A DNA stretch of 20,000 bases, from assembly GCA_009602735.1 (NCBI GenBank), contig WELA01001729.1, forward strand, positions 106,827 to 126,826. The letters run 5' to 3'. The DNA is from Mesotaenium endlicherianum (Eukaryota). This document shows, piece after piece, positions 2,460-20,000 of the stretch (its first letter is position 1; each line of letters starts with the position of its first letter). Below the pieces are notes generated by a model. That model did no database searches and was not told where the DNA came from. It saw nothing but the letters and a program-made list of their open reading frames with translations. The position numbers and the translations under genes are program-made.

Positions 2460-3178
2460 TGAAATGAATCGCCTTACCAAATAGGCGATTAACAATTAAT
2501 AAAGATCTTTATATCAGCAAGTAATCTTATAGTATTTCCGTTAATTAGTTAAACGGCAAAGGACAATACACTAGCAGGGAATAATACTCGTAAGTCAAAT
2601 GCGAGTAAACTAGCATCAATGATGCAAATCAGTAAACTCATACATAAGCAAGGTTAGAAGACAGTGCGTATCAATGGCTTCTCGCCTTGGATTCAGAGTT
2701 CTCTCAGTAAGCTGTACAAGAGAGTTGGCCTCGTTTCCGAATGCCGAACTCGAGAGCAATGCCTAGCATATGTACATGGAATGAGTTTACTGTTCAACGG
2801 TCAGTGCGATGGCACCGCCTACCCGGGAGTTAACCACGTTGGTAGGACCTCGGTTAATCAAATCCACCGCCCATCTCTTATCATCCCGAATAGCCATCCA
2901 TCATGGGGATGTCATCTGGCCATTCATCTAGCGGGTCGTACTTAGATGCATATCAAGGCAGTTCGCTGCTACCGAGCACGGAAGTCAGCTGGCTGTCAAA
3001 GAATGTGTCAGCAAGCTGACTTAAGTTGACTTCAGCCTGTTGCTTTCGGCCGAGGCATTCAACTGATAATTATGTAAAGTCCAGCAGACTGATTATTAAC
3101 TAAAGTTCAGCAGGCTGAACTGAATTAACTATTAGATTTAAATGAATATTATATCCACTAATATACTGATTCATTACA
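2460..3178 (-). repeat. 3' LTR (719 bp)
   Basis: TGAAATGAATC...GATTCATTACA, an 11-bp terminal inverted repeat with 1 mismatch. Abuts the PPT. Confidence 0.95.
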
Positions 3179-3193
3179 ATCCCTCCAACTTAA
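3179..3193 (-). promoter_or_regulatory. Polypurine tract (plus-strand primer site)
   Basis: Minus strand reads TTAAGTTGGAGGGAT immediately before the TGTAATG start of the 3' LTR. Confidence 0.8.
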
Positions 3194-3291
3194 CATGTTG
3201 TCGCCTCGACAACATTAAACTGCAGAAATTTTAAATAAGGGAGCTGAACCTGACCAGCCTTCCTTACTGACTGCCTCTTCAGCGTGTCACC

Positions 3292-4968
3292 TTAAGGGGT
3301 TGTTCCTGGGGCTTCAGGGTCAGGAGACGGAGAGCTGGACCTAGATCTGGACAGCCCTCTAGGTCTGTCAGCTGGCCTTCTAAAGAACCCTGTTTGCTCT
3401 AAAGTTGGCCCTCGAGGAGAACGGAGGATGGTGGCCTGCTCTTCAACTATTTGGGTGTTGATTCCCACATAGACAGGCATTCCAGTAGGATGCTGAAATA
3501 CATTGGCTAGAGGTACATGCCCCTGAGCGGAGGGGGAGGCTGGCATACTTCTGGCCCACCCGCGTGTCTCTCTTCCGGCACCCCTGTCCTCTGGGGATTT
3601 CTGTCTGTGTCTGCTGCCCAGTACCGTCAGATCAGCTTCTTCCCCTGCTTGGGCAGGTGGGCTGGGGGAGCGAGCGCGGGGTCCAGTTGTCGCCATAACG
3701 GGGATCACATTCCACACACCTGATCGTGGTTCTTTAGGAAGTGCCACTGCCTGTCCCTGGGTATCCTGAGTACCTGCTGCTGATGCTTCTCCTCTGCCTT
3801 GTTCTTCTTCCTCATCCTCCTCATCCTCCTCCTCGGAGAGAGTAGGGGTCTCGTCCACTAAGTCGTCCTGCTCCCTAGTAGACATGGAGTAGTCTACCGA
3901 CCTCCCTTTCTTAGGGCGCGCTGGAGGTTGCTTGGCCTTCAGCCTACTGATATCTATCCGGCCTGCATTCTTTGCCCATTTGACAAAGGCATGCTTTCCC
4001 TTAGAGAAGTACTCTCTTCCCCTCCTCCTATGTTCCTTGGTCTCTGCATTCATATTGCTCAGGCATCCATTCAGCCTGGGGTCCCAAGGGGCAATGTGAG
4101 GTGGTAGGATGAGATAGCCGTCTAGGCCATAGTGGAAGTCATCCGGTTGGGCTCGGTCACACTCCTGCTTCTTATTTGTGACGGTCATCCACCTCCAGTC
4201 TGTTGGCTGCTGGTAGTACTGGGGTCCGTGCTCAGCCTTCCTCAGTTTACACGGGAACCAGTGGGGAGAGAACATCTGCTGTCCTGCTTCCCTGGCCAAG
4301 TACTCCCAGCTCCTTCTCTCAACTTCATTGTAAGCTGGCAGGAGTGTGAGGTAGAATACCGTATCCTTATAGCTATCGGGCCGCAAACTCACCATCCGGA
4401 TGAGTCTCTGATCTCCCACTATTCTCGGTATGGGGACCGGCTTGTCCTCTGAATCATCTGCGAGATACCGGGCCTGCTCTGCTGTATAGCCCACCATCTT
4501 AGCATAATCTTCGTAAAGGACCACGCCGGTGTGTGTCTCGATGTACCTGTCCAGTGCTGTAGCTCCTTCCTTCTGTAGCAGTGTTGTCTGTTCCAGCCTG
4601 TTGATCTCCTGGGCTGCCAGCAATGCTTCCTTCAGGTTATCGAAGTTTTGGCCACCCACCACAGTATACCTGTAAGTGGCCAAGCTCTTCTGCCTGTCCG
4701 CTTCAATCTTTTTTCTTTTCTCCTCGTCTGCCGCTGCCGCTTCTTCTTGCTGTTTCTTCTGTCTCTCCTCCTCAGCCTTCCTGAGGTTTTCCGCTTCCTG
4801 ATTCTTCTTCCTCTGTGCCTCTTCTGCCGCCTCTTGTTGCTTGCGGACCCTTTCTTGTTCTCTCCTGGTGAGGGACGTCGCCGCCAGCTCCTTCTGGTAT
4901 TGCTCCATTGTCCTCCTGGCTTCTTCTGCCTTGCGCTTTCTGTCCTCCTTTTGTGTGGTGGGCGCCAT
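3292..4968 (-). CDS. Extra ORF3 (~558 aa) of unknown function: E/K/R/Q-rich helical N-terminus, ~240-aa aromatic-rich core, acidic tract, low-complexity R/S/P tail
   Basis: Uninterrupted 1.7-kb ORF between pol and the PPT, in the same sense as gag-pol. The ORF-track start at 4992 is TTG. ATG 4968 follows a splice acceptor; an alternative ATG lies at 4977. A homologous decayed copy at 13437-14880 differs mostly at synonymous sites. Confidence 0.85.
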   Translation of the reverse strand: MAPTTQKEDRKRKAEEARRTMEQYQKELAATSLTRREQERVRKQQEAAEEAQRKKNQEAENLRKAEEERQKKQQEEAAAADEEKRKKIEADRQKSLATYRYTVVGGQNFDNLKEALLAAQEINRLEQTTLLQKEGATALDRYIETHTGVVLYEDYAKMVGYTAEQARYLADDSEDKPVPIPRIVGDQRLIRMVSLRPDSYKDTVFYLTLLPAYNEVERRSWEYLAREAGQQMFSPHWFPCKLRKAEHGPQYYQQPTDWRWMTVTNKKQECDRAQPDDFHYGLDGYLILPPHIAPWDPRLNGCLSNMNAETKEHRRRGREYFSKGKHAFVKWAKNAGRIDISRLKAKQPPARPKKGRSVDYSMSTREQDDLVDETPTLSEEEDEEDEEEEQGRGEASAAGTQDTQGQAVALPKEPRSGVWNVIPVMATTGPRARSPSPPAQAGEEADLTVLGSRHRQKSPEDRGAGRETRGWARSMPASPSAQGHVPLANVFQHPTGMPVYVGINTQIVEEQATILRSPRGPTLEQTGFFRRPADRPRGLSRSRSSSPSPDPEAPGTTP

Positions 4969-4999
4969 CCTGCACATGTAACCAGGGCACAAGTTAGTA
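4969..4999 (-). promoter_or_regulatory. Putative branch point and 3' splice acceptor for ORF3 subgenomic mRNA
   Basis: Minus strand: TACTAAC(4999-4993)-TTGTGCCCTGGTTACATG-TGCAG|G-ATG. There is no other AG between the branch point and the acceptor. TACTAAC is kept in the relic copy (13427-13433). Confidence 0.65.
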
Positions 5000-5173
5000 G
5001 GATATGGACCTTTGTCATAGGGATTGCAGGAAGTATGTTAGTATTTAGTATAGTGGCTTCGCTGCTGTTTACCTTACAGGATGATTGCTAAAAGTTGACG
5101 TAGTTGCGATGCGCTACACATAAACGTATGAGTGTGTTTTTATCGCTCTCGCTCACTAACTGTCATATATTTT

Positions 5174-5187
5174 CCCCTCCAACTTAA
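5174..5187 (-). promoter_or_regulatory. Internal duplicate of the PPT just downstream of pol
   Basis: 13 nt (5175-5187) are identical to 3181-3193 (TTAAGTTGGAGGG). Also present in the relic at ~13140-13152. Confidence 0.65.
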
Positions 5188-5235
5188 ATGGAGACAGGAC
5201 CGCCTGTCACCTTCCCGTGTCAACTGAAATGACAG

Positions 5236-8200
5236 TTATGGAGGGACTCCAGCGGCCCGAAGGTGGAACCGTGTCAACGCCCCTTTGGCATTGGTCAAGT
5301 GGTCCTTAAACTCCCAAGTGTCCCCAGAGGCATCGTAACCCTTCCATCGAATGAGGTATTTCATGACATATTTAGACGATCGACGGACCGAGCGAGCGTC
5401 TAAAATCTCATCGACCTCATATTCCTCCGGGTCGCCGTCCCGGACAGCGGGGACCGGTCCCGGTTGGACAGGGAACCGACCTGTGAACAGTGTATCACCT
5501 TTGGTGTACGGTTCCAGGAAGGAGACATTAAAGACCGGGTGCCCATTGTATTCAGTTGACATGTTCAATTTGTAAGCATTCTGACCGACACGACGGACCA
5601 CCAAATATGGACCGACCTTGACAGGGCCAAGCTTTTTCTTGACCACACCAGGGAGGTACAGGTGCTGAGAATGCAGTTTGACTAAATCCCCCTTGGAAAA
5701 TGTCAGTTCCCGACGGTGTTGATTAGCGTATTTTTGTTGGTTTTCTTGGGCCGTGTGCAAGTTTCGTTGGACTTCTGACAGGGTGTCAGCAAACTCCTGA
5801 GTTAACTGGAGGGAGACCGGGTTGTCAATCCCTTCAGGGTGAGTTAAAGATTCCCCTAGCACATCTAGAGGAGACTTAGGGACTCTACCCAGGCTGAGTT
5901 CAAAAGGAGTTTTGCCCGTTGACGCGTGCACCGCACTGTTGACCGCAAACTGAATTTGAGGCAACAGGTCATCCCAATTATCTTGTTTTTGGTTAATATA
6001 TGCTCTCAGCACCTCCTGCAGAACTCGGTTAGTTCTTTCAGTCTGCCCATCAGTCTGAGGGTGGTTTGCTGTGCTGAGCAGCTGTTTGACTCCCATTAAC
6101 CCCATTAAAGCTCTCCAGAACTTAGAGGTGAATTTTGAGTCTCTGTCTGAGATGATATTAGAAGGGAGCCCATGTTGGCATACTACATGGTTGTAAAACT
6201 GTCTCGCTGTTTCGAGTGCAGTCACTTTGACAGTTGTGGGGATAAAAATGACCATTTTTGTCAGTTTATCCACGACTACCAGTATTGAATCATGCCCGTT
6301 GGCAGTTCTTGGTAGTGAGACCACCCAGTCCATGGATATAGTTTCCCAGCGTCCCGCTGGGATGGGTAGCGGTTGCAAGAGACCTCCGGGTGGTGTGTGC
6401 CGAGACTTATTTCTCTGACACTGGTCACAGGACTTGACATATTTCAAGACCTCCCGGGGTAACCCCTCCCAATGATAATGTTTTGCCAGTTTGCCAACAG
6501 TTTTGGCCTGCCCCAAATGTCCACCCAGGAGACTGTCATGAGCTTGACTCAGTAAGAGAGACCTTATTTCCAAGTTATTAGGAATGACCAGCTTCAGCCT
6601 GCCTGAAGTGGTTTCAGTCACCCAGACCCCTCCCTTGAGCTTATACCCGAGTGCAGTAGCACGACACACACCAGTAGTGGGGCTGGGCTCAAATGTTGGG
6701 TCAGAAAGGTAGGCTTTCCTAAGTTGTTCAAGGAAGGACTTTTTCACCTTTAGTGAAGTGAGTGCACACAGGACTTTATCTACAGCATGCTGACTAAAGT
6801 TCCTTTCTTGCAAGTCAGGTCTTCTAGAGAGTGCATCAGCAGGATTCAACTTCCCTGGTTTGTAGTCGATCTGGACTTGGAACTGCTCCAGCATCTGGCT
6901 CCAGCGGTTCTCCCTCCTCGACAGCTTGGACTTCTTCTGAAAGTGGGTCAGAGCTAGATGATCTGTAATCACCTTAAAAGCTTTACCATGTAAGTATGCT
7001 CTCCACTGTTTGAGTACATGAATGATAGCTAGCAGCTCTTTATCATGCACTGAGTAATTAATCTCCGCTGGATTAAATTTCATAGACTCATACAACACAG
7101 GATGCCACTCCTGCCGTACCTTACCATCCTTTGTGGTTTTGTCAGCAGGCTGCAACAAAATAGCACCCATGGCAAAATCAGAGGCATCAGTAACCACCTG
7201 CACCGGTTTGCTGGGGTCATACACGGCTAGCACTGGGGCAGAACAAAGGGCATCTTTAAGGGTCTGGAAGGCAGCCTGCTGCTCTTCCCCCCACACATAC
7301 CCGATGTCTTTCTTAGTAAGGTCAGTCAGTTTACTGGCCTTTGTGGAATAATTCTCAATAAATCTCCTATAGTAGTTAGCCAACCCGAGGAAGGATCTAA
7401 CTTCAGAGACAGACTGTGGTACTGGCCAGTCCCTTATGGTCTGGACTTTCTTAGGATCCACACTGATGCCCTCTTTACTGACAACGTGGCCTAAGAATTC
7501 AATACTTTCCTTAAAGAAATCACACTTGCTCATTTTAGCATACAAGTGATTTTTCCGCAGAGTGTCCAGCACTTTCTTTAAGTGTTCAGTGTGCTGAGCT
7601 TCATCTTTAGAGAAAATTAAAATATCATCCAGGAAAACTTGCACAAACTTATCCAAATAAGGTCTGAAAATGTCATTCATAGCACCCATAAAGGTAGCAG
7701 GAGCATTAGTCAGTCCAAATGGCATCACGTTGAACTCATAGTGTCCATAACGTGTGCGGAAAGCAGTCTTGTGTTCATCCCCCTCAGCAATTCTGATTTG
7801 ATGATAACCACTCTTGAGATCTATCTTACTGAACACCTTAGCGCCAGACAGGGTATCAAGCAAGTCCTCGATTCTGGGTAAAGCATACTTGTTCTTTACT
7901 GTAATTCTGTTCAGGGCTCTGTAATCCACACACATCCGCATACTGCCATCCTTTTTCTTAACAAATAGGATAGGTGCGCCGTACGGTGATTTACTGGGAG
8001 AAATGTAACCATTTTCCTCCAGCTCTGCAATCTGTGTTTTCAACTCCTCGCTCTCCAAATAAGACAAGCCATAAGTGCGTTGCCAGGGTGGCTGGCTACC
8101 AGGTAATAGATCAATCCTATGATCTACTTCCCTTTTAGGGGGTAGTCCTGGAGGCATGTTAAACACATCAGTGTACTGAGCAACAATTTTTGCAGCAGTA

Positions 8201-9045
8201 GGGTGCTCCGGAGGGCTTACCTTTTTCTCAACCACTTCTTCAGGTTGAGGAGGTACCTCTCTTAGCAGCAGACAGAACATTCTGTCTTCCTTCTGGTTCC
8301 AGCTTTTGACGAACTCCATTGCATTCAGCAACTTGCATCCTTCTGGAAGCCTCTTCTTTTCCTTCATTTGCCATCCACACAGGACAAGAGGAAGAGCACT
8401 GGTGGGTGCCAAGTCAGTCTGCCCATCACTGGCTCCTCTCACTTTAACTGTACCTCTGCTCCAACACACTTCAGCTTGATGTCTATTAAGCCAGGACCTG
8501 CCTAGCACGAGATCATAAAAGCCAGTGTTGAGTACCTCAAATGTAAGCGTTTCAGTTAGAACTGCAATGCCAGAACCTAACTGGACCTCAATAGGCTTGG
8601 TTATAACTCCTCCCGGGATACTTGAGGCATCTCCAAGGAATATTTTTCTATTCCCTTGGGTGACAGTAGGCAGCCTTAGCCGCTTAACTAAGTCCTTGTG
8701 GATAAAAGTATGTGACGCCCCTCCGTCAACAAATGCCCTCACCTTCCTACCTGCAATCATGCAATGCAGTAGGATAGGGGGGACTGTCTTTTCCTGACTT
8801 TCGCATTGTTCTCCTGACGTAGCAAAGAAATGTTGGACATCAGGTGGAACAAGAGCATCCAGAGTGTGCACTCTCTGGACGTCTATATTACTGATGGTCT
8901 CCTTTATCTGTTTGTCAGGCATGCATAGTGAATCCAGTTCAGCAGGACCCATAATACCTGCTACGAGGGCAGCTAGTGACGACTCACTATCTCTAGCATC
9001 CTCACAGTCAGTAGACTGGATTACTGACTGTTGCTGTCTTTTAAA
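5236..9045 (-). CDS. pol: Pol polyprotein: aspartic protease, reverse transcriptase, RNase H, integrase, chromodomain (in the -1 frame relative to gag; first ATG at 8952)
   Basis: [11 protein letters not shown]...[68 protein letters not shown]6-H...C-X2-[21 protein letters not shown] motif. The frame is open from 9066. Confidence 0.96.
5260..5427 (-). other. Integrase C-terminal chromodomain (canonical aromatic-cage type)
   Basis: [12 protein letters not shown]...[22 protein letters not shown] retains the Y, W and Y cage positions. Confidence 0.9.
9004..9045 (-). promoter_or_regulatory. Putative -1 programmed ribosomal frameshift signal (gag to pol)
   Basis: Heptamer T TTA AAA (9045-9039) in gag phase, 7-nt spacer, then perfect 10-bp stem ACAGTCAGTA/TACTGACTGT with 8-nt loop (9031-9004). 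Pol is in the -1 frame and overlaps gag here. Confidence 0.85.
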
Positions 9046-10499
9046 GGCTGGTCTTTTCTCTCGACCTTAGGCAGGTGCTTGACCGGACACTGTTCTCTGT
9101 AGTGGCCTTTCTGCTGACAATGGTAGCAAGTAGATTTTGCTGAGGCTGGTCTCGGCTTAGTCCTACCACCACCCCTTCCATAGCCACCTCGAGAGGGACC
9201 ACCTCTACCTCTAGACTGAATAGCATTGTACTCATACTCATATTCATCACCCTGATTATCCTCAGCCTGGTCTCCTTCAACTGCATTGTAGGAACCGTGG
9301 GGCTTTTTGACAATCTTAGACACCAAAGCGTTACTCTGGCGCTTGTGATTGAACTGCTGCTGATCCCAGGCGTCAGCATCCTGGATCAAGTCAGCCAGTT
9401 TCTCATACTTTTTCTCAGCAAAATGACCAGAGACCTCGGATTTCAAGCCATACCTGAAGTATGCTATCCTATACCGTTCTGGCAAATCAGGCTGCTTCAT
9501 CATGTTCTCTTGGAACTTTTGAGCAAACTCAGCAACTGAAGTGGTCTGCTTCAGTGTCAGGGAGATCATCGCATAGATAGCTTTCTCCTGCTGGTTGATG
9601 ACATCAAACTTCTCATGCAACTTCTCGACAAACTCTACCCACGTAGGGTCACCGAGTTGCCGAGCCTTACGCTCTTCCTTCCAGTAAAGCCACCAGTCTG
9701 CGGCACTGCCTTTCAGTAGCGCACCGGTGTGCCTGACCTTCTCGTAATCTTGCAGTTCTGGGTAGTTCTCCAGCCACTGCTCAACATCCGCGAGAAACTT
9801 GATCAGGTAATATTTTCTGTTTCCCTCAGGATCATAGTCCTGGGGAGGTTTCGGCTTGGGCTTACTAGGCCCTCGGCCACCACCACTAGTGGTGTGAGAC
9901 CCCAGTTGGTCTCTGTCCCGGAGTAGGGACATTATGATTCTTTTGTCCTCCTGCTGGGACTGATACATGGTCGCCATTTGCGACTGCATCTGAACGAACA
10001 ATGCTCCCAAGTCTACATTTTGGGGTGGTAGATTAGCAAATGCAGCAGCAGCATTGGCATCTACTCGCTGAGTAGTGTCCTCAACAATCCCTCTTGCTCC
10101 TGCAGCAGCAATTCCTGCCGCATTCAGCCGGTCACGTATTTGACCTAGGGGTACATTGAGTTGTACGGCAGGAGGTGGGTTCAGAACATTGGCCCTTGAT
10201 GCCATAAGTTCTTCAACAGTGCGCTCGTCAGCTGGCTGTCCTTCCCTCCTTTGTATATCTTCAGCGGCCTTTGCTACTTGTTCAGCTTCTAGTCTGGCTA
10301 TCTCCTCCTCAGCTTGCTGAGCTGCGACTGAGGCAATAGCAGCTGCCTCATCTGCAGCCTCCCTAGCTGCAGTATCCGCTACTGCTTCCGAATAGGTACG
10401 GTTTCCCGCTACATGGCTTTCCGCCTGGTTTTCGACATTCTCGTTATCCTGGTTCTCCATGTCTCGGGAGTTGCTAGTTTGAGACCTTGTCCTTACCAT
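9021..10499 (-). CDS. gag: Gag polyprotein (492 aa)
   Basis: Retrotransposon capsid-like region ([36 protein letters not shown]), an RGG-rich segment, and a CCHC knuckle [14 protein letters not shown]. Confidence 0.95.
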
Positions 10500-10520
10500 A
10501 CAAAGAAGACTGTGATAACT

Positions 10521-10532
10521 GCTCCGATACCA
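10521..10532 (-). promoter_or_regulatory. Primer-binding site, tRNA-iMet type
   Basis: Minus strand TGGTATCGGAGC, 1 nt after the CA of the 5' LTR. One difference from the canonical plant TGGTATCAGAGC. Confidence 0.9.
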
Positions 10533-10533
10533 C

Positions 10534-11284
10534 TGAAATGAATCGACTTACCAAATAGGCGATTAACAATTAATAAAGATCTTTATATCAGCAAGTAATC
10601 TTTATGGTAATTTCCGTTAACTGGTTAAACGGCAAAGGACAATACACTAGCAGTGAATAATACTCGTAAGTCAAATGCGAGTAAACTAGCATCAATAATG
10701 CAAATCAGTAAACTCATACATAAGCAAGGTTAGAAGACAGTGCGTATCAATGGCTTCTCGCCTTGGATTCAGATCTCTCTCAGTAAGCTGTACAAGAGAG
10801 TTGGCCTCGTTTCCGAATGCCGAACTCGAGAGCAATGCCTAGCATATGTACATGGAATGAGTTTACTGTTCAACGGTCAGTGCGATGGCACCGCCTACCC
10901 GGGAGTTAACCACGTTGGTAGGACCTCGGTTAACCAAATCCACCGCCATCTCCCATCATCCCGAATAGCCATCCATCATGGGGATGTCATCTGGCCATTC
11001 ATCTAGCAGGTCGTACTTAGATGCATATCAAGGCAGTTCGCTGCTACCGAGCACGGAAGTCAGCTGGCTGTCAAAGAATGTGTCAGCAAGCTGACTTAAG
11101 TTGACTTCAGCCTGTTGCGTTCGGCCGAGTCATTAAACTGATAATTATGTAAAGTCCAGCAGACTGACTATTAACTAAAGTAAAGTCCAGCAGACTGACT
11201 ATTAACTAAAGTTCAGCAGGCTGATCTTAATTAACTATTATATTTAAATGAATATTATATCCACTAATATACTGATTCATTACA
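10534..11284 (-). repeat. 5' LTR (751 bp)
   Basis: TG...CA direct repeat of 2460-3178, adjacent to the PBS. Contains a private 31-bp tandem duplication. Confidence 0.95.
11149..11212. repeat. 31-bp perfect tandem duplication in the U3 part of the 5' LTR
   Basis: TAAAGTCCAGCAGACTGACTATTAACTAAAG x2. Single copy in the other two LTRs. Confidence 0.95.
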
Positions 11285-13090
11285 CCTATGCTTTCTTGTT
11301 CTTGCTGTGTATGACTCCAGTAAACCTGTGCAGGTGGTTACTGACGTTTTTTACTTTGCCATGGGTGCTATTTTGTTACAACCTGCTGACAAACCACAAA
11401 GGATTTTTTATTTAGTGCATGATAAGAAGCTGTTGGCAATTATTAATGTCCTCAAACAGTGGAGAGCACACTTACATGATAAGGCTTTCAAGGTGTCAAC
11501 AGAAATCTGGCTCTGACTCATTTTTTAGTGGAATTCCAAGCTGTCGAGGAGGGAGGATTGCTGGAGCTAGATGCTGGAGCAGAACCAAATCCAGATCGAC
11601 TACAAACCAGGGAAGTTGAATCCTGCTGATGCACTCTCTAAAAGACCTGACCTGCAAGAAAGGAACTCTAATCAGCATGCTGTAGATAAAGTTATTGGTA
11701 ATCACGTCACTTAAGGTGAAAAATCCCTTATCTTGAATAACTTAGAAAAGCCTAGTTTTCTAGCCCAACATTTGAGCCCAGCCAAACAGTTGGTGTGTGT
11801 CCCGCTACTTCACTCGGTTGTAGGCTGAAAAGAGGGGTCTGGGTAATTAAACTTAGGAAGGCTCAAGTAGGTGATTCCTAATAACTTGGAATTAAGGTCT
11901 TTATTCCTTAGTCACGCTCATGACAGTTTACTGGGTGGACATTTGGGGCAGGCCAAAATTGTGGGCATATTGGCAAACTTTACCACTGGGAAGGGTTGCC
12001 TCGAGAGGTCTTTAAATATGTTAGGTCCTGTGATCCTCGTCAAATAATTAAGTCTAGACACACACCATCCGGGGGGCTATTGCAACCACTATCTATCCCA
12101 GCTGGACGATGAGACACCATATCCATGGACTGGGTGATAACACTACCAAGAACTGCCAATGGGCATGATTCTATACTGGTAATAGTGGATAAATTGACAA
12201 AAATGGTCATTTTCATCCTCACAATTGTCAAGGTGACTGCACTCAAAACTGCGAGACAGTTGTATAACCATCTTTGCCAATATGGATTACTCTCCAATAT
12301 CATCTCAGACAGAGACTCAAAGTTTACCTCCAAGTCCTGAAGAGCCTTAATGGGGTTGATGGGAGTCAAACAATTGCTCAGCACAACAAACCACCCTTAC
12401 ACTGCTGTGCAAACTAAAAGAACTAATCAAATTTTGCAGGAGGTGCCGAGAACTTATATTAATACAAGATAATTGGGATGACTTGAAATTGAATTTGCGG
12501 TTAACAATGCGGTGCATGCGTCAACGGGAAAGACTCCTTTTGAACTCCGTCTGGGTAGGGTCCCTAAGTCTCCTTTAGATGTGGTAGAGGAGTCTTTAAC
12601 TCATCCTTAGAAGATTGACAATCCGGTGTTTCTCCAGTCAACTCAGGAATTTGCTGACCCCCTGTTTGAAGTCCAGCAGAACTTGTACAAAGCACAAGAA
12701 ACCCAATTAAAATATGCCAATCAACACCATCGGGAGCTGACATTGTCTAAGGACGATTTGGTCAAACTGCTTTCTCAACACCCGTACCTGCCTGGTGTGG
12801 TCAAGAAAAAGCTGGGGCCAGTCTGGATGGGTCCATACTTGGTGGTACGCCAAGTTGGTCAGAATGCTTACAAACTGCACATGTCAGCGGAATATAAGGG
12901 TCACTCCGTCTTTAATGTCTCTTTTCTAGAACCATACATCAAGGGTGACACAGTGTTCACAGGTCGGTTACCTGTGCAACCAAAACCAGTCCCCGCTATT
13001 GGAGACACTTGGGAATACAAAGACCATTTGGTCAACGCAAAAGGGGCGTTGAAATGTTTCTATGTCTAGGAAGCCGATAGACCACCTTAA
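11285..13090 (+). pseudogene. pol: Decayed family-1 pol (RNase H-integrase; chromodomain core deleted)
   Basis: Fragments [31 protein letters not shown] and KKKLGPVWMGPYLV match the intact pol. Many stops, frameshifts and deletions; PVPAI joins directly to GDTWE. Confidence 0.92.
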
Positions 13091-13436
13091 CTGCCATTTC
13101 AATAGACATGGGAAGGTGACAGGGCGGTTGTTTCTCCATTTAAGTTGGAGGGAAATGTGACAGTTAAGTGTCACCATAGTGACAGATGTGACAACCAGGC
13201 CCACCTTGAGCAAAGTTGGAGGGTGTCCACCACTTGGAAGGAGGGAGGGACCAGTACATGAACAAATCACTCAACTCACCCTGCACACACATACCTTCGT
13301 TTATTCTCATCACGCTACAGCTCAATTAACTCCTAGTACCCACTCTGTAGAATAAGGGAACAACTCTGCTGTAATAATACAAACTTACTCCTCTTTCTGC
13401 ATCTATTGTGACAATGAATGATATCCTACTAACTTG

Positions 13437-14880
13437 CTGCGGAGGAAGAAAGAAAGAAGGAGGAAGCTAAAAGGCAGAAGAGCGTGGCCACTTACAGATA
13501 TACTGTGGTGGATGGCCAAATCTTTGATAATGTGAAGGAGACACTACTGGCAGTCCAGGATATTAATCGAATTGCCAAGCAAACAGTGTTGCGGAAGCAG
13601 GGAGCTGAAGCTCGGGATAGGTATATTGAGACACGCACTGGGGTTGTCCTCTACAAAGATTATGCCAAGATGGTGGGGTATATAGCGGAGCAGGCGCGGT
13701 TCTTTGCTGATAACTTGGAAGATAAGCCAGTACCAGTACCTGGCATAGTGGAGGATCAGTGGCTCATCGAAATGGTGAGCATGCAGCCCGATGGCTTTAA
13801 CGATGTCTTGTTTTCCCAGACGTTGCTGCCAGCCTACAATGAAGTTGAGAGAAGGAGCTGGGAGTACTTGGCCAAGAAAACACGACAGCAGATGTTCTCT
13901 CCCCATGTTCCCTTGTAAGCTGAAAAATGCTAAACATGGGCCACAATACTACCAGCAACCTACAAACTGGAGGTGGATGATCGTCCCTAACAGGAAGCAG
14001 CACTGTGAACGGGCCCACCCGGATGATTTCCACTATGGGCTGGACGGTTAGCTTATCCTGCCACCTCACATTGCTCTTTGGGACTTCAGGCTTAATGGAT
14101 GCCCGAGTAACATGAATGAGAAAACCAAGGAGAACAAGAGGAGAGGACAGGACTACTTCTCTAAGGGGAAGTATGCCTTTGTTAAATGGGCAAAGAATGC
14201 AGGCTGGATAGATATCAGCAAGTTGAAGGCCAAGCAACCCCCAGCTCATCCTAACAAAGGGGGGTCACTAGATTTCTCCATGTCTACCAGGGAGCAGGAT
14301 AACTTGGTAGATGAGACCCCTACCCTCTCTGAGGAGAAGGATGAGGAGGATGAGGAGGATGAGGAAGCGGAACAGGGCAGGGGAGAAGCATAAACCTCTG
14401 GAGCTCAAGAGATCCGGGGACAGGCAGAGGCAGGAACTCCTAGGGGGCCAAGAGCAGGAGGAAGGACTGTGACTCCTACTGTGGAGACAACGGTACCTCG
14501 AGCTCGATCTCCCGGCCCACCTGCCCAAGCAAAGGAAGAGGCAGAGCTGACTGTACTTGGTAGCAGAGAGAGGCAGAAATCCCCAGAGGACAGAGCTCCT
14601 AGAAGTGGAACTCGCGGTGTGGCCAGAGGTATGCTAGCCACCCCCTCCAGTCAGGGATGTGTGCCCCTTGCCAATGTATTTTAGCATCCTACTGGTTTGC
14701 CTGTCTATGTGGGAATCAACATCCAGGAGGTTGAAGAGCAGGCTGCAATCCTCCGTTCCCCTTGTGGCCCCACTTTAGAGCAGACAGGGTTCTTCAGGAG
14801 GCCAGTCGACAGAACTAGAGGGATGTCCAGGTCTAGGTCCAGATCTCAGTCCCCTGATCCTGGAGCCCCAAGAACATCAT
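13437..14880 (+). pseudogene. Decayed copy of ORF3 (N-terminus deleted)
   Basis: ATYRYTVV, LLPAYNEVERRSWEYLA, HGPQYYQQPT, PDDFHYGLDG, AFVKWAKNAG and GPTLEQTGFFRRP match 3292-4968. Frameshift at ~13905 and stops at 14049, 14391 and 14682. Confidence 0.9.
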
Positions 14881-15009
14881 TTGAAACCATCCTCCGGTCA
14901 AGCCTTGCTGGGGGTCTCTCTGTTTGCTCTCCGCAAAGGTAGTGGACTGAGGGTGGAGGTGACAGTTTACTGCCATTAGTGATCCCCATAGTGATCTCCA
15001 TAACAGTGT

Positions 15010-16265
15010 TGAAACTGGCTGACTTGATCCAGGATGCTGATGCCTAGGATCAGCAGCAGTTCAATCACAAGCGCCAGAGTAATGCTTTGGTGTCTAAGAT
15101 TGTCAAAAAGCCATATGGTTCCTACAATGCAATTGAAGGAGATCAGGCTGAGGACGATGAGAGTAATGAGTACAAATATGAATATAATGCTATGCTGTCT
15201 AGAAGGAGAGGTGGACACTCTCGAGGTGGTTATGGAAGAGGTGGTGGCATGACTAAGCCGAGACCAGCCTCAGCAAAACCTATTTGCTACCATTTCCAGA
15301 AGTTTGGCCACTACAGAGAGCAGTGTCCTAGCAAGCACCTTCCAAAGGTCAAGAGAAAAGATCAGTCCTCAAAAGATAGCAACAGTCAGTAATTCAGATT
15401 ATTGACACTGAAAATGCTAGAGATAGTGAGTCGTCACTAGCTTCCCTCGTAGCAGGTATTATGGGTCCTGCTAAATTGGATTTACTATGCATGCTTGGCA
15501 AATAGATAAAGGAGACTTTCAACAATATAGATTCCCAGAGAGTGCAAACTCTGGATGATCTTGTGTTACCTGATGTCCAACATTTCTTTGCTAAGTCAAG
15601 AGAACATTGCGAAAGTCAGGAAAAGTCAGATTCCCTATCCTACTGCATTGTATGATTGCAGGTAGGAAGGTGAGGGCATTTGTTGACGGAGGGGCGTCAT
15701 ATACTTTTATCCATAAGGACTAAGTTAAGCGGCTAAGGCTGCCTACTGTCACCCAAGGGAACAGAAAAATATTCCTTGAACATGCCTCAAGTATCTCAGG
15801 AGGAGTTATAACCAAGCCTATTGGGGTTCGGATAGGTTTTGGCATTGCGGTCTAACTGAAACGCTTACATTTGACGTACTCAACACTGGGTTTTATGATC
15901 TTGTGCTAGGCAAGTTTTGGCTTAACAGACATCAAGTCAAAATGTGTTGGAGCAGAGGTACAGTTGAACTGAGAGGAGCCAGTGATTGGCAGACTAACTT
16001 GGCACCCACCAGTACTCTTCCTCTTGTCCTGTATGGATGGCAAACGAAGGAAAAGGAGAGGCTTCCAGAAGGATGCAAATTGCTGAATGCAATGGAGTTC
16101 ATCGAAAGTTGGAACCAGAAGGAAGACATAATGTTCTGTCTGCTGCTAAAAGAGGTACCTCCTCAACCTGAAGAAGTGGTTGAGAAAAAAGATAAGCCCT
16201 CTAGAGCTCTCTACTGTTGCAAAAATTGTTGCTCAGTGTATGATGTTTTTAATATGCCTCCAGGA
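15010..16265 (+). pseudogene. Decayed family-1 gag C-terminus, protease and linker
   Basis: [17 protein letters not shown], degenerate knuckle CYHFQKFGHYREQC, FVDGGAS and WSRGTV match 9400-8150 of the intact element. Multiple stops. Confidence 0.9.
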
Positions 16266-16278
16266 TTGCTCCAGGATT

Positions 16279-16370
16279 GGCAAAGGTTTTAAGGTAATTA
16301 CAGATTATCTAGCTCTAACTCACGTTAAGAAGAAGTCCAACCTGTTGAGGAGGAAGACTCGCTGGAGCCA
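16279..16370 (+). pseudogene. Family-1 RNase H fragment
   Basis: GKGFKVITDYLALTHVKKKSNLLRRKTRWS versus [30 protein letters not shown] in the intact pol. Confidence 0.85.
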
Positions 16371-16655
16371 TGTAGTGATACAGATAGATAAAATACTTAG
16401 TAAAACAGAATACTTTATCTATTCAAGACAAGGATCTTTGAACACAAGTGGTAGCTTCTTGAAAGAGAGATGGCTTCTTGAAACTTAATATATTTCTGCA
16501 TTTTGGCAAGTACAAGAGTGATTCTCCAATGTCTTTCTATGTTCTTGCTCTTGTTTATTTACTTGCTAAATAAGCAACTTCTAGGAAGGTGTATGTTGAT
16601 GTGTTGGCACCCAACACATCCCAAAACTTGCCACCTCTTTCTAGAATAATGTACA
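16371..16655 (+). repeat. Repeat X copy 1 (TGTAGT-starting, AT-rich; probable LTR end of a third family)
   Basis: Near-identical to 17308-17592. Begins with TG abruptly within RNase H sequence. Confidence 0.75.
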
Positions 16656-16659
16656 ATAA

Positions 16660-17264
16660 TGTGTGATTTCTTCAAGGAAAGTATTGAATTCTTGGAGCAC
16701 GTTGTCAGTAAGGAAGACATCAATGTGGGTCCTAAGAAAGTCCTGACCAAAAGGGACTGGCCAGTGCCACAGTCTGTCTCGAAAAATTAGATCCTTCCTC
16801 GGGTTGGCTAAATTCATTGAGAATTATTTTACAAAGGCCAGTAAACTGACTGACCTTTCTAAGATGGACATAGGGTATGCGTGGGGGGAAGAGCAGCAAG
16901 CTACCTTCCAGATCCTTAAAGATGCTCTTTGTTTTGCCTTAGTCCTAGCCGTGTATGACCCCAGCAAACCTGTGCAGGTGGTTACTAATGCTACTAACTT
17001 TGCTATGGGTGCTATTTTGTTGCAGCTTGTTGACAAAACCACAAAGGATGAAGATAAAGCGGGAGTGACACCTTGTGCTGCACGTGTCTATGCAATTCAA
17101 TCCAGCTAAGATCAATTTTTCTATTCATAATAAAGAGCTGCTGGCTATCATTCATGTTCTCAAACAATGGAGAGCATTCTTACATGACAAAGTTTTTAAC
17201 GTAATTACAGCTTATCTACCTCTAACTCAAGTTAAGAAGAAGTCCAAGCTGTTGAGGAGGAAGC
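16660..17264 (+). pseudogene. Decayed family-1 RT C-terminus to RNase H
   Basis: [40 protein letters not shown] and [17 protein letters not shown]. Contains frameshifts and a deletion. Confidence 0.88.
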
Positions 17265-17307
17265 GACAACGGACGCATCGTGACAAGACCTTTTCGAAAA
17301 GTCCTAG

Positions 17308-17670
17308 TGTAGTGAAACAGATAGATAAAGTACTTAGTAAAACAGAATACTTTATCAATTCAAGACAAGGATCTTTGAACACAAGTGGTAGCTTCTTGAA
17401 AGAGAGATGGCTTCTTGAAAATTAATACATTTCTGGATTTTGGCAAGTACAAGAGTGATTCTCCAATGGCTTTCTATGTTCTAGCTCTTGTTTATATACT
17501 TGCTAAATAAGTAGCTTCTAGGTAGGTGTATGTTGATGTGTTGGCACCCAACACATCCCAAAACTTGCCACCTCTTTCTAGAATAATGTACACATGTCCT
17601 TTTGACCTAAAAATGGCACATCTGACTTTTGCCACATGGAGTTCTTCTAGGTCTTTCCTCTAACTTCGAA
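17308..17670 (+). repeat. Repeat X copy 2
   Basis: Starts TGTAGTGAAACAGATAG. Direct repeat of 16371-16655 and inverted repeat of 17980-18233. Confidence 0.8.
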
Positions 17671-17979
17671 AATGCCTTGGAAGGTTCAAAGGACATGAAC
17701 CAAGTTACTAGAGTACCTATTCACACTTGACTCCACACAATACTACTCCAAATATATTTGAAAACATTAAAATATATGCGAATTAATATATAATAACTCA
17801 AATCACTACAGCCGAACTCGTCAAAGCGGCGTTCCCCATAACAACTCGCACCATTCTCTCCACCTCTGCGCGCATATATATTTTGAAAACATTAAAGTAT
17901 ATGCAAACTCAAATCACTTTAATGCTTGTCTGGACATGCTCTGTGAAGTGACCTCTCGGCTGGCAATGGAAGCAAATCG

Positions 17980-18233
17980 ATTCGAGGGTAGAGGAAGGAC
18001 CTAGAAGAACTCCTAGAAAGTTCCTAGAAGTTACTTATTTAGCAAGTATATAAACAAGAGCTAGTACATAGAAAGACATTGGAGAATCACTCTTGTACTT
18101 GTCAAAATCCAGAAATGTATTAACTTTCAAGAAGCCATCTCTCTTTCAAGAAGCTACCACTTGTGTTCAAAGATCCTTGTCTTGAATAAAGTATTCAATT
18201 TCACTAAGTACTTCGTCTATCTGTTTTACTACA
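17980..18233 (-). repeat. Repeat X copy 3 (inverted)
   Basis: Reverse complement begins TGTAGTAAAACAGATAG and matches 17308-17522, then 17638-17670. Confidence 0.8.
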
Positions 18234-18841
18234 AAAACTGTTGGCAAATTGGCAAAACATTCAGTGGGAAGGATTACTTCGGAAGGTCTTGAAATATGTT
18301 AAGTCCTGTGATCAGTGTCTTAGCCCTAAAAACAAGGCGGGACACAAACCACCCGAAGGGCTATTGCAACCACTACCCATCCCCGCTGGACGATGGGAAC
18401 CAATATCCATAGACTGAATGATGACACTACGAAGAACTGCCAATGGGCATGATTATATCCTAGTAGTAGTGGATAAATTGACAAAAATGGTCATTTTCAT
18501 CCCCACCACTGTCAAAGTGAGTGCACTCGAAACTGCGAGACGTTTCTACAACCATGCAGTATGCAAACTTGGACTACCCTCATATATCATCTCGGACAGA
18601 GACTCAAAATTCACCTTGAAATTATGAAGAGCTTTAATGGGGTTGAGTCAAACAGCAAACAGCTGCTCAGCACAGCAAACCACCCTCAGATTGATGGGCA
18701 GACAGAGAGTACTAACCGAGTTCTGTAAGAAGTATTGAGAGTATATGTTAACCAAAACATAGATAATTGGGATGACCTGTTGCCTCAAATTCAATTCGCG
18801 GTCAACAGCGCGGTGCTTGCGTCAAAGGAAAAGACTCCTTC
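18234..18841 (+). pseudogene. Decayed family-1 integrase zinc-finger/core fragment
   Basis: [44 protein letters not shown] and [10 protein letters not shown], with several stops. Confidence 0.9.
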
Positions 18842-19106
18842 TGTGAAAGGGGCAAAGTGCCCTAGTGGAAGCGTAGTAACTCACGAGGAAAAAAACTAGT
18901 TGCAATCATGTCAAAGAGTGCAGCGGCACATCACTAAGAAAACTTAGGAAAAATACTCAACATTTGAGTAACAAGAAACTGCTCACAAATGTACTAGGAT
19001 GAAAGGCCTTGTCATTACAAACCCGTAGAAATTTACAGAAGTGAAACTTGATAAGAAACAAGGAAGTTATGCCTATTTATAATTTTCTGCCTAAGTGCTC
19101 CTCCCT

Positions 19107-20000
19107 AGAGAAGAATGGCTCCCACTGCAAAATTTGATGCGTCCGTAATGATGGTAAAAGGAAGCTCTGGACTTGCAATTGCCAACACAGGTGCCTGTGT
19201 CAACAGCTCCTTAATCTTCTCAAATGCTTGCTGCTCCTTGTTACCCCATAGCCACTTCTCCTGCTTCTTCAACATGTCCGTCAGCGGTGCACATACCTTG
19301 GCAAATCCTTCAATGAAACGTCGATAATATTTCGCCATGCCGAGGAAACTCCTGAGTTGATGAATTTTAGCAGGTACCGGCCAATCTCTGACTCCTTGCA
19401 CCTTCTTCTGCTCCACCTTGACTCCTTCGGCTCCCACTATGTGCCCAAGAAACTCAACCTCCTTGAGACAGAAGTTGCACTTGCTCATCTTCCCATAAAC
19501 TTCTGATCTCTCAAGACCTCCAACATCTTCCTCAGATGCTCCACATGCTCTTCCAAGGTCTTTGAATAGATCAGGATGTCGTCCAAAAATAGCACCACAA
19601 ACTGGTCCAAGTAGGGTCTGAAGATACTATGTATGAGTCCCATGAATGTTGCAGGTGCATTAGTCAATCCAAAAGGCATGACCGTGAACTCAAATAAACC
19701 ATAGCGAGTCCTGAAAGCAGTCTTCTGAACGTCTGCTTCCGCAATCCGTACCTGGTGATAGCCACTCCTCAAATCGATCTTCAAGAAATACTTCGCCCCG
19801 ACAAGCCTGTCAATTAACTCGTCCACTCGTGGAAGTGGGTACCTGTTCTTGATGGTGACCTTGTTCAGCGCCCGGTAGTTGACACACATCCTCATAGTCC
19901 CATCCTTCTTCTTCACAAATAAGACTGGTGCTGCAAATGGAGACTCGCTGGGTCGGATGAATCCCTTCTCCAACAACTCTGTCAGCTGCTTCTTCAACTC
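19107..20000 (-). pseudogene. pol: Ty3/gypsy family-2 RT to start of RNase H (second copy; runs off the window)
   Basis: [31 protein letters not shown] and TDASNFAVGAILL. 1-nt deletion frameshift near 19500. Highly similar to 1150-1896. Confidence 0.92.

Follow-up and report, generated by a model that had tools for sequence, protein, structure and literature searches.

A putative splice acceptor in front of the orphan third gene of a chromovirus-type retrotransposon

How a retrotransposon might express a gene that lies behind pol is the question raised by a locus in Mesotaenium endlicherianum. The window, the whole stretch of 20,000 nucleotides analysed here, carries on its minus strand an LTR retrotransposon of 8.8 kb in which intact gag and pol are followed by a spacer of 267 nt and then by a further open reading frame, ORF3. 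In insect errantiviruses, env is expressed from a spliced RNA, and the initial annotation drew this parallel: it proposed that a branch point and splice acceptor directly before the ORF3 start codon allow ORF3 to be translated from a spliced transcript that has lost gag-pol. What the present analysis establishes firmly is that a chromovirus with a doubled polypurine tract (PPT) carries a third gene that is orphan, under selection and not an envelope gene; the route of its expression can be stated with graded confidence.

The element and its third gene

Coordinates refer to the window and, unless a plus sign is given, to its minus strand; a slash within a motif marks a candidate splice boundary. 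The 5' LTR (10534-11284, TG...CA) shows 19 mismatches over 718 aligned columns to the 3' LTR (2460-3178), and next to it lies a primer-binding site (10521-10532) that presumably resembles the tRNA-iMet type. Pfam matches identify a Ty3 capsid and zinc knuckle in gag (9021-10499) and, in pol (5236-9066), protease, reverse transcriptase, RNase H, integrase, SH3 (SH3_Tf2-1) and chromodomain (Chromo, E 2e-8), in the order PR-RT-RH-IN with the chromodomain C-terminal and with Tyr, Trp and Tyr retained at its presumed cage sites. The terminal PPT is found at 3181-3191. With domain order, TG...CA LTRs, primer-binding site and PPT all present, the element is a chromovirus-type Ty3/gypsy retrotransposon. 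The 5-bp flanking sequences (ATAGG, GCAGG) have two mismatches and form no target-site duplication, which bears on this copy (old, rearranged or assembly-joined) and not on the family.

The nearest relatives overall by reverse transcriptase-RNase H (RT-RH) are unnamed proteins at about 60% identity; among named elements, the nearest come from plants and green algae, at about 45-55%. An RT-RH tree, built from the query and 68 of 120 matches (kept if they had at least 370 aligned residues and were hand-labelled or from P0072 on) and free of REXdb references, places the query with unnamed metagenome and Logan proteins at a support of 0.81, outside the seed-plant clade.

Several further features of the locus deserve mention. 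Gag and pol overlap by 46 nt (9021-9066), with pol in the -1 frame; frameshifting between them is likely, because this overlap holds the T-run/A-run CCTTTAAAAG. The U3 of the 5' LTR contains a 31-nt tandem duplication (11148-11211) that is absent from the 3' LTR, and a third LTR copy, 90-92% identical, occupies 1-721. A second gypsy family, which is more distant (RT 69% identical), is represented by pol pieces within 886-2400 and 19105-20000, and an assembly gap of N falls near 1896-2314. Relics of the element's own family, inverted and scrambled, occupy 11268-18843 (+): first a pol end, spacer and ORF3, and after these the C-terminal part of gag and fragments of pol. Local duplications occur there at 16371/17308, and 18021-18188 is an inverted piece.

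ORF3 (3292-4968) encodes 558 amino acids, arranged as a charged low-complexity N-terminus, a more complex core (about 95-360), an acidic patch and an Arg/Ser/Pro-rich tail. Compared with the relic copy, its dN/dS is 0.22 (0.217; bootstrap 0.16-0.29; 469 codons), next to 0.238 for pol (520 codons) and 0.242 for gag (125 codons) in the same comparison, and the other two frames of ORF3 give 1.69 and 1.42. ORF3 is a real gene that is under purifying selection as gag and pol are.

The product offers little resemblance to known proteins. No homologue was found among proteins of near length, among shorter ones (searched with residues 95-370), in the ESM Atlas, or in metagenome and viral contigs; Pfam, including matches below its cut-offs, and NCBIfam returned no family, and the PDB no homologue, with one coiled-coil-like match at E 0.34. 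A single-sequence fold reached a pLDDT of 35 and was set aside. There is no membrane segment or signal peptide (the top 19-residue hydropathy is 0.73), no furin-type site (R-x-K/R-R) and no N-glycosylation site (N-x-S/T). Because it has no membrane segment and no homologue in these searches, ORF3 is, as judged from its sequence, not an envelope, and the proposed parallel to env fails for the protein, which has neither signal peptide nor membrane anchor. Its basic and Arg/Ser-rich stretches make a soluble accessory protein likely, one that is probably nuclear; a Rev/CERV-like or chromatin-related role would be a guess.

Eukaryotic ribosomes scan from the 5' end, and 267 nt with four ATGs separate ORF3 from the pol stop, so ORF3 likely needs an mRNA of its own. 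One of these ATGs, at 5018, opens an overlapping frame of 128 codons (4632-5018) whose product would begin with 17 hydrophobic, signal-like residues and be very basic in its remainder. This frame has no family match in NCBIfam and is probably a by-product of T-poor sequence; in the relic, too, it contains an ATG, immediately ahead of the 16-mer described below.

A candidate branch point and acceptor

The arrangement reported by the initial annotation was confirmed at 5000-4968. Specifically, the minus strand reads CTACTAAC (5000-4993), an 18-nt stretch free of AG, TGCAG (4974-4970), G (4969) and the ATG (4968). The putative branch A at 4994 lies 24 nt from the acceptor G, and the AG that precedes the AG of the acceptor sits as far back as 5011. 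The branch consensus falls in the range of 18-40 nt before the first YAG, as is expected of a U2-type intron. When the 267-nt spacer was shuffled with its dinucleotides preserved, in a test devised after the motif had been seen, 0 of 5000 shuffles gave this layout with TACTAAC, as compared with 2.3% for the looser CTRAC and 4.3% for YTRAC; the layout was scored as a branch motif, a first AG that is a YAG 10-40 nt downstream, and a distance of at most 30 nt from the ATG.

Four properties of the site had been passed over in the earlier account. An in-frame ATG with poor context stands directly upstream (4975-4977) and would fall inside the intron were the acceptor used, and a second TACTAAC, which the relic has lost, lies at 5037-5043. 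The stretch between branch point and AG contains no clear pyrimidine tract, being 38% T and 29% G where the whole spacer is 26% T; a pyrimidine- or U-rich tract is dispensable in some lineages. Finally, the A of the acceptor AG also occupies position -3 of CAGG ATG GC, where a purine makes for a good start context, and this context could account for the AG without any splicing.

The relic copy offers a comparison of limited reach. It lies inverted at 13085-14876 (+) and retains a diverged spacer with PPT and a broken ORF3 (3 stops among the aligned codons and 3 gaps). A 16-mer that contains the putative branch point (4990-5005) is found once in the element, at 5005-4990, and once in the relic, at 13421-13436 (+). 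Over 235 columns the two spacers are 75% identical, and in the 92 columns just upstream of the 16-mer 65%; the longest exact runs in this alignment are the internal PPT (20) and then the 16-mer. The chance of such an exact run at a named place is about 0.001, which points to constraint on the 16-mer at the level of nucleotides. The earlier claim that the 16-mer is kept exactly while its upstream neighbourhood has diverged therefore holds, but cannot confirm the acceptor: directly past the 16-mer the relic lacks about 250 nt, in which the acceptor, the start codon and roughly 80 N-terminal codons would lie, so that it cannot test the acceptor AG. The idea that this deletion reflects a spliced-out intron was rejected, as its ends, inspected by eye, make a poor donor and no clear AG.

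Donor candidates, identified in the sequence only, exist both far from the acceptor and near it. At the U5 end, G/GTAAGT (10546-10551) varies over the three LTR copies, reading GTAAGT in the 5' LTR, GTAAGG in the 3' LTR and ATAAGT, with its GT lost, in the copy at 1-721. At the start of gag (10491-10501), T/GTATGG (10501) and ATG/GTAAGG (10496) are candidates, and use of the former would take out the gag ATG. A fusion of the gag ATG to ORF3 through donor 10496 was considered and dropped, the gag ATG being one base out of frame. A local donor, AAG/GTAAAC (5067-5072), would define an intron of 103 nt and is lost in the relic.

The spacer itself has a history that bears on ORF3. An internal PPT (5175-5185), an 11-mer identical to the terminal one (3191-3181), is followed by what resembles a decayed LTR start, and the relic has two copies of the tract (13142, 13213). 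Contigs X1 and X4 as well as RNA reads (7 in X16, 5 in X17 and 8 in X18) depart from the element at 5174, where the internal PPT has just ended, and continue into an LTR-like sequence that opens with TG and of which 30 letters are seen; the relic spacer opens likewise at 13156, and the element's own spacer resembles a decayed form of it. We infer that the sister sequence is an LTR. On the simplest reading, a sister family would have pol directly followed by tract and LTR, and the ORF3 family would have extended past this junction and taken in ORF3, so the sister sequence may reveal how the gene was added. An Rfam scan gave nothing above chance, and a metagenome scan with the PPT motif gave 4 loci, all of them chance matches without pol or ORF3.

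RNA evidence and rival routes to ORF3

The initial annotation had named split reads at 4969 among its checks, and RNA from a related organism (organism C) allowed a small version of it. Of 19 runs listed, nine are raw RNA from organism C; five of these (X10, X13, X16, X17 and X18) were used, 6-24% of each, together with two contig sets (X1 and X4). About half of the sampled words are common to the element and the organism's other runs. None of the indexed data sets that contain the stretch is recorded as RNA, which counts neither for nor against splicing. Across 3195-11290, which includes all candidate donors, four joints are listed in X10, X13 and X16, none of them at 4969, and across 4820-5250 in X16, X17 and X18 neither a joint nor a loose end is listed at 4969, the threshold for listing being 3 reads from 2 starts. 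Depth at the site is 0-5: X10 and X13 have zero depth over 4815-5084, and reads with the first mate on the plus strand reach a depth of 1-5 over 4820-4954 in X16 (about 395 read-bases) and X17 (about 355), with none in X18. In 4955-4969 their depth falls to 0.33 (X16) and 0 (X17), meaning that they end 10-15 nt before the acceptor. Reads of the opposite orientation, with the first mate on the minus strand, cross 4969/4970 unspliced (about 1 in X16 and 2 in X18). The former are sense if the libraries are of the dUTP type; if the reverse applies, the unspliced reads are sense. For the dUTP case, a simple simulation with many assumptions puts at about 0.03 the probability of seeing no plus read at the acceptor given a joint at 4969.

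No spliced read is present under either library direction. This is mild evidence against splicing and not a refutation, because depth is tiny and near background, the RNA carries a different organism label and other copies may have given rise to the reads. Contigs X1 (3757-5232) and X4 (4820-5140) span the site unbroken at more than 99% identity. They are uninformative on splicing because X1 looks like DNA, with flat depth and records of up to 28 kb, and uninformative on conservation of the site because they are nearly identical to the element here. In organism C, LTR-derived RNA far exceeds internal RNA (10431-11290) and switches strand near 10755. Loose ends at 10431, 10534 and 11284-11285 lead into several host flanks; this excess and these ends indicate that solo or truncated LTRs are transcribed.

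The acceptor is used at all, by whatever route, with a probability that we place modestly above one half. Its use by an RNA that starts in the LTR, with ORF3 made from a spliced subgenomic RNA, is tentatively favoured at a little short of an even chance. In such a scheme, transcription would start in the LTR and the likeliest donors would be 10551, within U5, or 10501, immediately ahead of the ATG of gag. U2 would bind TACTAAC with the branch A at 4994, and the first AG would be used, giving a joint at 4970/4969. Splicing would then remove gag-pol (about 5.5 kb) together with the four spacer ATGs, leaving ATG 4968 as the first start past the joint. Splicing from the LTR is favoured because a consensus branch, the 24-nt spacing, the AG-free gap and an ATG at +2 coincide; because the 16-mer and the PPT are the longest exact runs kept in a spacer that is 65-75% identical; because consensus donors are at hand at 10551, 10501 and 10496; because ORF3 is selected and preceded by four ATGs after the pol stop; and because the RNAs of Athila ORF2 and of the Bagy-2 env-like gene are spliced. 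It is weakened by the missing joint, the missing pyrimidine tract, the loss of the AG in the relic and a U5 donor that is not strictly kept. The initial proposal thus retains its gene, its site, its donors and its precedents, and is held back by RNA in which no joint at 4969 is listed, a relic that is uninformative and a spacer that looks like an LTR.

This last point is also why an internal promoter, which the initial annotation itself named as the case against it, remains a serious rival: a promoter could reside in an old LTR start. An unspliced ORF3 RNA made from such a remnant of the sister family's LTR is somewhat unlikely on present evidence. In that case the 16-mer, 22-37 nt before the ATG, would act as an element of the core promoter or of the start site, and the AG would belong to the start-codon context. 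The departures at 5174 into TG-opening sequence and the similar relic spacer at 13156 fit this view, as does the read pattern, in which one strand tapers to zero at 4954-4959 and the other begins near 4940-4957, as at a divergent promoter if the libraries are dUTP. This pattern, however, comes from about 10-12 reads in total that carry another organism label, are mostly 90-99% identical, sit mainly on the 5' part of ORF3 in X16 and are absent from X18, and the sister sequence, at 30 letters, may be diverged spacer instead of LTR. A perfect branch point with a well-spaced first CAG would, moreover, be a coincidence. Precedents are an internal promoter proposed for Sirevirus ENV (PMC2829016) and one demonstrated for the antisense gene that the maize element Grande carries (PMC7264820).

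Between these two lies a mixed route that we regard as improbable, in which a promoter near the PPT is combined with a short 5' UTR intron (5072-4970) that uses the same branch point and acceptor and leaves gag-pol in place. The local AAG/GTAAAC is a good donor, 103 nt is an ordinary intron length, and removal of this intron would eliminate the ATGs at 5018 and 4977; against it, the relic does not retain this donor and no joint 5073-4969 is listed in X16, X17 or X18. It is also distinctly unlikely, if slightly less so than the short intron, that the motif is due to chance or serves another use, for instance an N-terminal extension from ATG 4977 or the overlapping frame from ATG 5018, with ORF3 reached by re-initiation, internal ribosome entry or 3'-end fragments. 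TACTAAC does occur 5 times in the window against 1.85 expected, exact runs of at least 15 between ORF3 and the relic number 9 in 1423 coding columns, and looser branch motifs attain the layout in 2-4% of shuffles. Yet the motif sits right at the ATG, the overlapping frame is without a family match, and the spacer folds no better than its shuffles (z 0.13), which lends no support to an IRES-like structure. Taken together, splicing from an LTR-started RNA is the best single reading, still slightly under an even chance, and the small RNA test leans against it.

Relation to known elements

Sense ORFs after pol are known from plant elements, and their expression and function in plant-type LTR elements are, by the account of PMC7264820, mostly untested although such ORFs are common. 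Athila, Calypso and Bagy-2, plant Ty3/gypsy elements that are not chromoviruses, likewise place a sense ORF between pol and the 3' LTR. A spliced subgenomic RNA is reported to encode Athila ORF2 (PMC7197481), and the Bagy-2 RNA is spliced as well (PMC7264820), so that an acceptor before the ORF goes with reported spliced RNA there, whereas here the acceptor is putative. Athila4 and Calypso carry one extra PPT in the linker (PMC2829016), as does this element. Unlike Athila, whose primer-binding site is mostly of the tRNA-Asp type (PMC6317226), the element has a chromodomain and a primer-binding site that we take to be of the Met type, and its ORF3 lacks a transmembrane segment and does not match Athila ORF-1 in Pfam.

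With the chromoviruses Chlamyvir, Tcn1, Galadriel and Tekay, the element has the order PR-RT-RH-IN-chromodomain in common, and the aromatic cage of the chromodomain is kept in elements of non-seed plants, according to PMC6317226. It differs in its 3' sense ORF, which REXdb, in the same paper, lists for 18% of Tekay and for none of Reina, Galadriel, CRM, Chlamyvir and Tcn1. The parts of PMC2864245 and PMC1142308 that were available contain nothing on splicing of such ORFs in chromoviruses, and a literature search largely confined to papers outside subscription turned up no chromovirus for which splicing of a third ORF is described.

Further afield, retroviral and errantiviral env is a third ORF after pol that is expressed from a spliced RNA (PMC7264820). 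The layout is alike here, and ORF3 differs in having no signal peptide, membrane anchor, furin site or N-glycosylation sites. Closer to the expected nature of the product is CERV of the Cer1 element in C. elegans, an accessory protein that is likewise an orphan and is translated from a spliced mRNA of its LTR element (PMC10309623); it serves as a model for a soluble role of ORF3, though element and host differ. For an internal promoter, the models are the ENV-like ORF of Sirevirus and gene23 of Grande, both extra ORFs in the linker between pol and LTR with extra PPTs; Sirevirus is a Ty1/copia element and the Grande ORF is antisense, unlike the sense ORF of this Ty3/gypsy element.

These comparisons suggest a broader scenario that is speculative and on balance unlikely: a chromovirus outside the seed-plant clades may have gained an orphan non-envelope gene past the ancestral PPT/LTR junction and come to express it in retroviral style, by splicing at a yeast-type branch point. 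This would be an independent arrival at the layout of complex retroviruses, with a soluble regulator of the element's own RNA export or silencing. As such, splicing of a third ORF is known from Athila, Bagy-2 and errantiviruses, and the layout, known from Athila, Calypso and Bagy-2, is unusual in this chromovirus group. REXdb lists no such ORF for the group, in which the element now adds an orphan gene under selection equal to that on gag and pol.
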